64,000 nucleotides of DNA from assembly GCF_000026545.1 (NCBI RefSeq), contig NC_011601.1. One strand, given 5' to 3'. Origin of the DNA: Escherichia coli O127:H6 str. E2348/69. Its GTDB lineage: Bacteria > Pseudomonadota > Gammaproteobacteria > Enterobacterales > Enterobacteriaceae. The notes under the pieces are model-generated. The model did no database searches and was not told the DNA's origin. It saw only the letters and a list, made by a program, of their open reading frames with translations. Shown here one piece after another: positions 57,641 to 58,584 of the stretch (positions are counted from its first letter, which is position 1; every line of letters starts with the position of its first letter). The position numbers were made by a program, and so were the translations under genes.

Positions 57641-58584
57641 GCAATCCCCCTGTCTGCAAACTTCCCTTCCCGTACTCCCGTTAACGAATCTTCCCTCAGC
57701 AGGTAATCAAAATCTGCCGTCCAGCCAGTGTCGTTGTCTCCGAAGTAAAACGGCTTGGCCTGATGCACAAACGCCCTGACATACGCTCTGAAACCGTCCA
57801 CGTTTGGCGTTTTCAGTTGCGGGATGATTTTCTTCAGGCGGCGTTTGCGTTTCTCGTTGACCGCAACAGCGTGTGGCAGTCTGTCACCGACTTCGGTGTT
57901 GTAGGCGTTCAGGAAGGATTCGTAGTCGATTCGTTCTGCCTTGCGACGTTCAGGTTTAACCTGCCCATCGCCTCCCCCATTGGGGGGTAGGGGGGTATTA
58001 TTTATATTCTTGTTAATACCTTCTTGTTCATCATGTGCGGTTGTTTGTGCGGCTTCATGTGCGCTTTCATGTGCGGCATGTGCGCTGAAAGCCGCGCCAT
58101 TACTGGCTTCGTCATGTGCGGCATCATGTGCGGTTGTTTGTGCGGCTTCATGTGCGGGTAAATTGTCCATTTTTTGAGCATATTCATGGTAATTTGTGAT
58201 GGTGATCACACGACCTTTTTGCTTCTCTCCATCAATGGAGATCATCCCCTCTTTCACAAAAACCTGAAGCATCCGCTCAACCTGATCACGGCTTGCTGGC
58301 TTGCCATGTCTGTCGCATAACTGAAGACCTAAATCAGCTGCTGTCACAACCAGTTGACCGGGTTGCAGATGCCATTCATGACCTTTGAAATTCGCTTTGT
58401 ATGGCTTTCTGGCGGCATTCAGGAGAAGGTTTTCCCACAGGGTGCGAAGATAAACATCTTTCGCCCATGACTGTTTCAGAATGCTCCGGTACAACGGAAT
58501 GTAACCAGTTTTCTGGTTCTCCATCCTGTTGCTCCTGCGCTCGTGTGCGGCGCTGAAATCGTAGATTTTTGCTGTATTGCTCAT
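57637..58584 (-). CDS. Replication initiator (lambda O-like N-terminus) with His/Ala-rich repeat linker
   Basis: 315 aa; N-terminus [10 protein letters not shown] resembles lambda O MTNTAKILNF; contains the iteron region. Confidence 0.7.
58029..58200. repeat. Replication origin: iterons plus AT-rich segment inside the O-like gene
   Basis: Repeated catgtgcgg/ttgtgcgg units (58029-58158; the block tcatcatgtgcggttgtttgtgcggcttcatgtgcg occurs twice) followed by AT-rich gtaaattgtccattttttgagcatattcat. Confidence 0.7.

Follow-up and report, generated by a model that had tools for sequence, protein, structure and literature searches.

Distinct iterons are located inside the coding sequence of the replication initiator, the O gene or gene 18, in the phages lambda, P22, and L (PMC8022706; PMC7466680; PMC3349717). 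In lambda, as in the Shiga toxin (Stx) phages 933W and P27 with their six-iteron origins, the origin occupies the middle of the initiator gene and joins the regions coding for the N- and C-terminal domains; the lambda repeats are followed by an AT-rich tract in the direction of O transcription, and the initiator is of the Phage_rep_O type (PMC7466680; PMC3349717). Here we describe a locus that shares these features, located in a stretch of 64,000 nucleotides from Escherichia coli O127:H6 str. E2348/69 (contig NC_011601.1; hereafter the window, to which all positions refer). It is the gene of an O-like replication initiator (57637-58584, minus strand; an open reading frame (ORF) of 315 aa) with short direct repeats in its central part. 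Very probably, this region serves a lambdoid prophage as its origin of theta replication and is placed inside the linker-coding part of the prophage's own O-like initiator gene. We base this reading on the statistics of nine repeat cores, on their position and flanks, on an architecture conserved among relatives, on constraint at the DNA level, on covariation with the initiator, on the logic of module exchange, and on precedent. On the sequence evidence, the arrangement is the lambdoid one of textbooks, but the iterons have an architecture of their own: their units are direct and 12 bp long, and they form two parts around a conserved element at the center.

Two Arrays of 12-bp Direct Repeats in the Initiator Gene

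Repeat finding located nine copies of the core TGTGCG[G/C] on the plus strand of the initiator gene (58034, 58046, 58058, 58070, 58079, 58115, 58127, 58139, and 58151), in agreement with an earlier note on this DNA (the original prediction, made from the sequence alone) that had reported multiple repeats within the gene. The spacings between successive cores within 58034-58157 are 12, 12, 12, 9, 36, 12, 12, and 12 bp, all of them multiples of 3. Given the background rate of the 6-mer core, the Poisson probability of at least nine cores in 124 nt is about 5e-20; the rest of the 64-kb window contains 19 other matches on its two strands, and a repeat scan of 1,051 bases (57600-58650) detected no further repeat cluster. 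Arrays with a 12-nt period were reported by Tandem Repeats Finder (58031-58077 and 58112-58157). The duplicated block of the original prediction does exist; as the longest exact duplicate (CATCATGTGCGGTTGTTTGTGCGGCTTCATGTGCG; 58029-58063 and 58122-58156), it measures 35 rather than 36 nt.

Read on the gene strand and written by codons, the unit is xxC GCA CA(T/A) xxx, and the units are grouped in two arrays, both on the minus strand. Array 1 (58112-58159) consists of four 12-bp direct units with the core C GCA CA (plus-strand TGTGCGG at 58151, 58139, 58127, and 58115); array 2 (58031-58077) likewise consists of four 12-bp direct units (plus-strand cores at 58070, 58058, 58046, and 58034) and adjoins an AT-rich tract. 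An extra copy with a 9-bp offset (58079-58085, minus strand) is probably degenerate: it reads GCGTACATG (Ser-Val-His) in most close relatives (67 distinct near-identical genes from IMG/VR viral contigs, with copies 98-100% identical), and other species, with layouts of 3+3 or 4+4 units, lack it. Since this ninth copy is mutated in most close relatives, the conserved layout is taken as 4+4 units. A tenth core (58541-58551, match at 58544; TCGTGTGCGGC, gene strand GCCGCACACGA) codes for AAH at aa 12-14, about 390 bp from the arrays; as it is not conserved in relatives, it probably arose by chance.

The repeats correspond to gene nt 428-554 (aa 143-185), between the regions coding for the N- and C-terminal domains, and encode a His/Ala-rich linker peptide with 9 His in about 45 residues. 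All units have one orientation, measure 12 bp, and are non-palindromic, and thus differ from dyad-symmetric iterons of ~18-20 bp. As a single strand, the arrays folded no better than shuffles (z -1.2, 26/200), compared with a z of -5.0 for the P22 iterons, and the formation of hairpins or cruciforms by the iterons was rejected on the basis of this fold value. A search of 57600-58900 for the DnaA-box consensus TTWTNCACA gave no exact match, and only three scattered GATC sites were present, for which reason readings based on DnaA or SeqA were dropped.

AT-Rich Flanks, Palindrome, and Central Spacer

The repeats are bordered on both sides by AT-rich DNA. The more extreme flank is the tract 57992-58030 (minus strand; gene strand GATGAACAAGAAGGTATTAACAAGAATATAAATAATA), a predicted DNA-unwinding element that encodes 12 residues rich in Asn and Lys. 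It contains the least stable 30-mer of the gene (57996-58025; free energy -29.5 kcal/mol, in the top 0.5% of the window), is invariant among the 67 close relatives, and has an equivalent that is AT-rich in all relatives, whatever their C-terminal domain. The tract adjoins the repeats on the promoter-distal side, as in lambdoid origins, and has its homologue in the AT-rich part of the P22 and HK97 origins, which matches it in position and in some of its sequence. The gene-upstream flank (58158-58200, minus strand; GC 0.33-0.40) encodes 14 residues and contains an A6 run (T6 on the plus strand, 58170-58175); it is among the 3-4% least stable 30-mers, and its sequence GCTCAAAAAATrGACrATTTACC is kept in most relatives. 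The AT-rich stretch of the original prediction, placed within 58029-58200, is indeed found at 58158-58200, but the equivalent of the lambda tract lies beyond the opposite end of the repeats, at 57992-58030, and only in part within that interval.

A C-run/G-run palindrome (57971-57995, minus strand; gene strand CCCCCCTACCCCCCAATGGGGGAGG, coding TPLPPNGGG) borders the downstream AT-rich tract and marks the start of the C-terminal module. It is common to P22, HK97, and the relatives L006 and L007, forms a predicted hairpin in the single-strand fold, and lies in part inside the annotated rep_origin of P22. In two of 78 near-identical genes (L008 and L013, both from IMG/VR and 947 nt long) a C5 run is present instead of C6 after the AT tract (~57990-57995). 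The resulting frameshift removes the C-terminal domain, and these loci represent either defective prophages or homopolymer sequencing errors.

Between the two arrays lies a central spacer element of ~18 bp (58089-58106, minus strand; gene strand CCAGTAATGGCGCGGCTT, coding S-N-G-A-A), which is present in all five iteron-specificity classes described below. Its third codon positions are C in 43/47, C in 41/47, and G in 44/47 sequences, the last at a codon that may specify A, K, E, V, or G. Conservation of these positions beyond what the residues need makes the spacer look like a DNA element that is not read by the variable recognition helix; no host-factor consensus could be assigned to it.

Comparison With Known Origins

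Lambda has four dyad-symmetric iterons of ~18 bp at roughly 20-bp intervals and a 38-bp AT tract, whereas the window has eight (nine) direct units of 12 bp, in two arrays with a spacer; the lambda initiator has P as its partner, with the host DnaB, whereas here the partner is a phage DnaB-like helicase. The ori-lambda organization put forward in the original prediction is supported by the position in the gene, by the AT tract, and by the homology to the P22 and HK97 origins, but does not extend to the iterons, which are 12-bp direct repeats and not ~18-bp dyad-symmetric ones.

P22 gene 18 and HK97 gp54 resemble the window in the C-terminal domain, the AT tract, the palindrome, the position in the gene, and the downstream helicase. 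The P22 record has a rep_origin annotated inside gene 18 (2418-2562 of L003), and the repeats of the window are found at the same place in the gene. The P22 and HK97 origins each contain four dyad-symmetric iterons of ~17 bp (TTTACCnnnnnGGTAAA and TTAGCCnnnnnGGCTAA, respectively), followed by a shared AT-rich tract and ACCCCCTTACCCCCTAAnGGGGG. The window shows the same order, with its own repeats followed by GAACAAGAAGGTATTAACAAGAATATAAATAATA and then by CCCCCCTACCCCCCAATGGGGG, which identifies the gene-downstream tract 57992-58030 as the equivalent of the lambda and P22 AT tract. The C-terminal domain and the helicase are thus those of a P22 gene 18/12-type module, while an N-terminal domain and iterons of the P22/HK97 type are missing: the iterons of the window are unrelated to theirs in sequence and symmetry.

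The nearest published analogue in form is gene 18 of phage L, a P22-like phage for which an origin with six imprecise 11-bp repeats (TGTCCAACGGA) has been proposed (PMC8022706). As in the window, short repeats (11-12 bp) within an O/gp18-like gene were in that case proposed as iterons from sequence alone; their sequence differs from that of the window, they were not described as bipartite, and a tblastn search with the window initiator gave no match in phage L at E<=1e-3. For head-to-tail binding, the closest analogues are the iteron plasmids (pSC101, R6K, P1, and RK2), which share with the window direct repeats of one orientation, a winged-helix initiator, and an adjoining AT-rich unwinding element. 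Plasmid iterons, however, are 17-22 bp long and lie outside the rep gene, whereas those of the window are intragenic and the initiator belongs to PF04492, so that a Rep_3/RepA-type initiator with extragenic iterons does not describe this locus.

Domains and Predicted Structure of the Initiator

The N-terminal part of the initiator matches Phage_rep_O (PF04492) at aa 20-132 (E 3.2e-15; 56.9 bits vs. a cut-off of 28.7), and no Pfam match to a plasmid Rep family (Rep_3/RepA-type) was found in the protein. The gene product is assigned to PHROG 345 ("replication initiation O-like"), and the same gene carries the annotation O or replication protein in CUS-3, JEP4, and Stx2a phages. Together with the homology of the C-terminal domain to HK97 gp54 and P22 gp18 and with the helicase gene that follows, this supports the O-like nature of the initiator, as had been predicted.

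The initiator is laid out as an N-terminal winged-helix domain, a disordered linker, and a C-terminal partner-binding domain, and an AlphaFold2 model of it was built on 33 relatives. The predicted winged-helix origin-binding domain (aa 20-135; 58180-58527, minus strand), recognized with AlphaFold2 and Foldseek, was modeled with a predicted local distance difference test (pLDDT) score of 86-94 over about aa 40-130, and its helix 82-88, helix 99-111, and beta hairpin 115-129 form a winged helix-turn-helix. Helix 99-111 is the predicted recognition helix (58252-58290, minus strand), with the codon of Asp100 at 58285-58287. The segment aa 140-216 has a pLDDT <50 and is predicted to be a disordered linker; the repeats together with the AT tract and the C/G-run palindrome code for exactly this segment. 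A sequence search of the PDB identified no solved homologue of the initiator.

The region coding for the C-terminal domain (aa 196-315; 57640-57999, minus strand) was delimited by homology to HK97 gp54 and P22 gp18. Over aa 185-315 the initiator is 94% identical to HK97 gp54 and 58% identical to P22 gp18, both of which are followed by a DnaB-like helicase. By tblastn, HK97 aligned only with query aa 185-315 and P22 with aa 185-312, the N-terminal domain remaining undetected, and in an alignment of the three proteins the identities cluster in the C-terminal part while the N-terminal parts align poorly. In the window, the next gene (56264-57640, minus strand; its start overlaps the stop codon of the initiator gene) codes for a DnaB-like replicative helicase of the P22 gene 12/HK97 gp55 type, with Pfam matches to DnaB_C (E 8e-78) and to the DnaB N-terminal domain (E 5e-13) and assignment to PHROG 19. 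The C-terminal domain would recruit this phage helicase.

Conservation of the Repeats at the DNA Level

Two sets of relatives were compared. The near-identical copies from viral contigs are informative on polymorphism and not on divergence; diverged relatives, with 42-80% identity in the N-terminal domain, came from a phage collection and from contigs of one genome per species. A protein search with a profile of the N-terminal domain returned nearly exclusively short "partial" proteins, and loci in genome and viral DNA were used instead.

Among the close relatives, polymorphic sites peak at gene nt 421-540, with 8-15 per 30 nt vs. 0-3 over most of the N-terminal domain, and the linker peptide is the most variable part of the protein. 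In the 67 near-identical genes the changes lie between cores, with essentially no variation in the CCGCACA cores themselves or in the AT tract (nt 553-600). Of 78 close relatives, 76 retain the reading frame. The repeats are present in every relative examined, as the original prediction expected, and change together with the recognition helix.

About 50 loci of Enterobacterales, from Escherichia, Klebsiella, Yersinia, Xenorhabdus, Proteus, Citrobacter, Atlantibacter, Pantoea, Serratia, and others, share one layout: an A-tract leader, 3-4 units of 12 bp, a spacer (consensus nCCAGTAATGGCGCGGCTT), another 3-4 units, CATCATGAACAA, an AT-rich tract, and finally the C-run/G-run palindrome. In 36 relatives the units occupy fixed codon indices 8/12/16(/20), with a start-to-start gap of 45 bp between arrays. 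The units with the core CGCACA (type a; 128 units from 20 loci) have C in 128, G in 127, C in 128, A in 127, C in 128, and A in 124 cases at successive core positions. The first C ends a codon, as its third base, whose residue may be P, A, G, S, T, N, or Y; GCA is the codon in 126/127 cases of Ala, and His is encoded by CAT in 106 cases vs. CAC in one. In units with the core CG[C/A]GCA (type b; 122 units from 16 loci), the third core position is C in 76 and A in 46, and the third base of the codon is G in 121/122, with Ala (75) or Glu (45) as the residue. In the other classes the repeats encode peptides free of His (PDEPCDKPSD, VEGSDEPPVE, and EVTNEVTN). Fixed synonymous positions combined with tolerated residue changes indicate a DNA site and not a peptide motif. 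The proposal that the protein repeat is constrained through its DNA was thereby upheld: third positions of the core are practically invariant (C 128/128, A 127/128) while residues vary, in a linker predicted to be disordered.

One record among the relatives deserves comment. L007 (OR850084.1), a contig of 2.7 kb deposited as "Staphylococcus phage SA 1298 Kay", carries an initiator of enterobacterial type and a DnaB-like helicase. This initiator is 60% identical to that of the window over a full-length tblastn match, with a conserved C-terminal region, and the peptide of its linker is found in Salmonella proteins (P0037) as well; the record is almost certainly a contaminant or mislabeled.

Covariation With the Predicted Recognition Helix and Exchange of Modules

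Residue 100, the second of the predicted recognition helix, is Asp in 21/21 loci with CGCACA units and His in all 23 loci with CG[C/A]GCA units; in the first set of loci compared, before others were added, the counts were 20/20 and 16/16. The rule also holds in loci where it runs against overall similarity, namely L099 and L102, which are of type a and cluster with type b, and L115, which is of type b and clusters with type a; these exceptions in clustering imply that switches occurred independently three times or more. Another three helix variants each come with different units, all in 3+3 layouts with the same spacer: KSPQAVTRM with the unit CCGAWGAACC, K[ST]xKQVR with the unit GAGGTAACAAAC, and KSAKAVERM with the units sGTCGAA/GTGACGA. 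Across these five classes of helix and unit, the iteron sequence co-varies with the N-terminal domain of the initiator, as in lambdoid origins. Chemically, it would be reasonable for Asp to face adenine and for His to face guanine.

In the classical picture, origin specificity resides in the N-terminal half of O and partner specificity in its C-terminal half. Klebsiella phage Mulock (L004), Yersinia phage 210.17 (L005), and 29 genome loci combine the same N-terminal domain and CGCACA-type iterons with a different C-terminal domain and a lambda-P-like gene. In all 29 resolvable loci with a C-terminal domain of the Mulock type, a lambda-P-like gene comes next, and a domain of the window/HK97/P22 type has a DnaB-like helicase gene next downstream. 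From the sequences compared, this distribution shows that the origin-recognition module has been exchanged between replication strategies based on a helicase loader and on an own helicase. The joint of the exchange lies at the AT tract and the palindrome; with the C-terminal domain tracking the downstream gene, this fits the classical division of O into halves.

Proposed Mechanism and Alternative Explanations

We infer the following mechanism. In each 12-bp unit, the N-terminal winged-helix domain would recognize the 6-bp core (C)GCACA. Residue 100, with which the recognition helix all but begins, may read position 4 of the core CGCACA (position 6 of the unit). Since the units are direct and not dyad-symmetric, protomers would probably load head to tail on the two arrays of four units. 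The nucleoprotein complex would then destabilize the adjoining AT-rich tract 57992-58030, and the C-terminal domain of the initiator would bring in the phage-encoded DnaB-like helicase. The His/Ala-rich peptide would be a by-product of iteron translation (C GCA CAT giving x-Ala-His) in the disordered linker, and the Asn/Lys-rich stretch is what the AT-rich tract encodes.

Several points weigh against this reading. The relatives share descent, so that unit counts are not independent events. The top Foldseek matches in the PDB were all winged-helix DNA binders, with weak scores (E about 0.02). The contact of Asp or His with A or G is deduced from covariation and a predicted model only, and these iterons, unlike the lambda, P22, and HK97 sites, are not dyad-symmetric, so that the suggested mode of binding is extrapolated and not homologous. 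With a second AT-rich flank at 58158-58200, unwinding might also start on that side. Finally, a literature search, in which subscription journals were little covered, found no description of this iteron family, of its repeat sequence, or of this origin.

Three other explanations were considered. The repeats could bind the initiator but serve mainly for control (titration, autoregulation, incompatibility or handcuffing, or silencing), with initiation at another site. Accessory roles of additional iterons are known from Stx phages (PMC7466680), and lambda iterons without the AT tract suffice for replication silencing (PMC3349717); a bipartite 4+4 layout with a conserved spacer also exceeds the needs of a minimal origin, and the core at 58544 is a further copy near the 5' end of the gene. 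That copy, however, is not conserved in relatives, 57600-58650 offers no other repeat cluster, and the arrays adjoin the least stable duplex of the gene, whose homologue in P22 is the AT-rich part of its annotated origin. We consider a purely regulatory role with initiation elsewhere highly improbable.

Even smaller is the chance that the repeat is a feature of the protein, a His/Ala-rich low-complexity linker for metal binding or flexibility with no role at the DNA level and with the origin elsewhere. The density of histidines in the linker, the unit spacings in multiples of 3, and the kept reading frame would all be expected of such a linker, but synonymous third positions are fixed while residues vary, the peptides PDEPCDKPSD, VEGSDEPPVE, and EVTNEVTN of other classes contain no His, and the linker is the most polymorphic segment among close relatives and is predicted to be disordered. 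Least probable of the three, with a minimal chance in our view, are repeats without function, left by mosaic recombination at a hotspot of slippage or gene conversion. Such a history would account for the location of the joint between N- and C-terminal modules at the repeats, for the conversion-like rearrangements of units in a few relatives (L024, L030, and L086), and for the 35-nt exact duplicate, which suggests recent conversion. It would not account for the number, register, and spacing of units being fixed across genera (indices 8/12/16(/20), 45-bp gap), nor for cores that are under strong purifying selection and co-vary with a residue of the recognition helix.

A broader proposal would make the region a distinct class of lambdoid origin, jointly defined by head-to-tail polymerization on two 12-bp arrays flanking CCAGTAATGGCGCGGCTT, by an iteron code at residue 100, and possibly by escape from the defense systems Lamassu and OLD; taken as a whole, we regard this combination as rather unlikely. 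Were it true, the CCAGTAATGGCGCGGCTT element would be read by a host factor or by a second surface of the initiator and not by the recognition helix, and Asp or His at position 100 would set one iteron base, which would make a simple initiator-iteron code that could be re-engineered. Lamassu and OLD are reported to be enriched at the lambda origin iterons, and a hairpin or cruciform has been proposed as the signal (bioRxiv 10.1101/2025.04.02.646746; 10.64898/2026.07.10.737580). Iterons incapable of forming hairpins might allow origins to escape both systems, and the non-palindromic iterons described here would offer a natural contrast to those of lambda for whether Lamassu and OLD depend on iteron hairpins.

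The replication module is common: the 271-bp ori region, with 100% identity to E. coli E2348/69 (O127:H6), is present (>=80% coverage) in 272/5426 complete E. coli genomes, and the initiator gene is 98-99% identical to the "O/replication protein" of CUS-3, HF4s, JEP4, Gally, and many Stx2a-converting phages. Knowledge of its origin is of use for building replicons and for predicting incompatibility and module exchange, and may help to interpret differences in replication among Stx phages. The comparative series is a clean case of a coding sequence shaped by the requirements of a DNA-binding site, and the pairing of Asp100 with A and of His100 with G would give a concrete residue-to-base rule for a widespread family of phage initiators without a solved structure.

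Genetic Context of the Probable Origin and Minor Observations

The early-right operon of a lambdoid prophage occupies 55-62 kb of the window; its minus-strand genes come in the order cro, cII-like gene, 90-aa ORF, O-like gene, helicase gene, and ninB. A lambda-type cI gene (59618-60331, plus strand) is followed by cro (59317-59517, minus strand) and by the cII-like gene (58882-59178, minus strand). The 90-aa ORF (58587-58859, minus strand; PHROG 2519, no Pfam match) lies between the cII-like and initiator genes, and HK97 (gp53) and P22 (orf48) have a small ORF at the equivalent position. A scan for sigma-70 promoters between 57900 and 59300 found no site. A terminator-like match at 58047-58064 was discarded, being merely iteron sequence.

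Very many database entries for the initiator are "partial" and end in the linker at contig ends, which suggests that short-read assemblies often break at iteron arrays. An alternative-frame ORF of 61 aa (58002-58187, minus strand) reads the iterons as PHM/PHK repeats, and in the proteins P0017 and P0052 the CAAAAAATGG run is one A shorter, which fuses the N-terminal domain to this frame. These fusions probably reflect assembly error or pseudogenization and not a programmed frameshift, an option that was rejected for the A6 run because fusions were seen in only a few low-quality assemblies.

A strong intrinsic-terminator-like hairpin with a T-run is present at 58906-58945 on the plus strand, opposite to the cII-like and O-like genes. 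It overlaps the lambda-like 3' end of the cII-like gene, and its orientation and position match those of the terminator of the oop antisense RNA of lambda and P22. The cII-like protein is presumably a mosaic, with the last ~20 residues (TNKKRPAATERSEQTQMEF) seeming to match lambda cII and the rest seeming different, and cI and cro likewise appear near-identical to those of lambda; this would fit conservation of the overlapping oop region. Downstream of ninB, in the nin region, the ORF at 55226-55813 (minus strand) contains an NPPY motif (..IWNNPPYSN..), which is typical of N6-adenine DNA methyltransferases.

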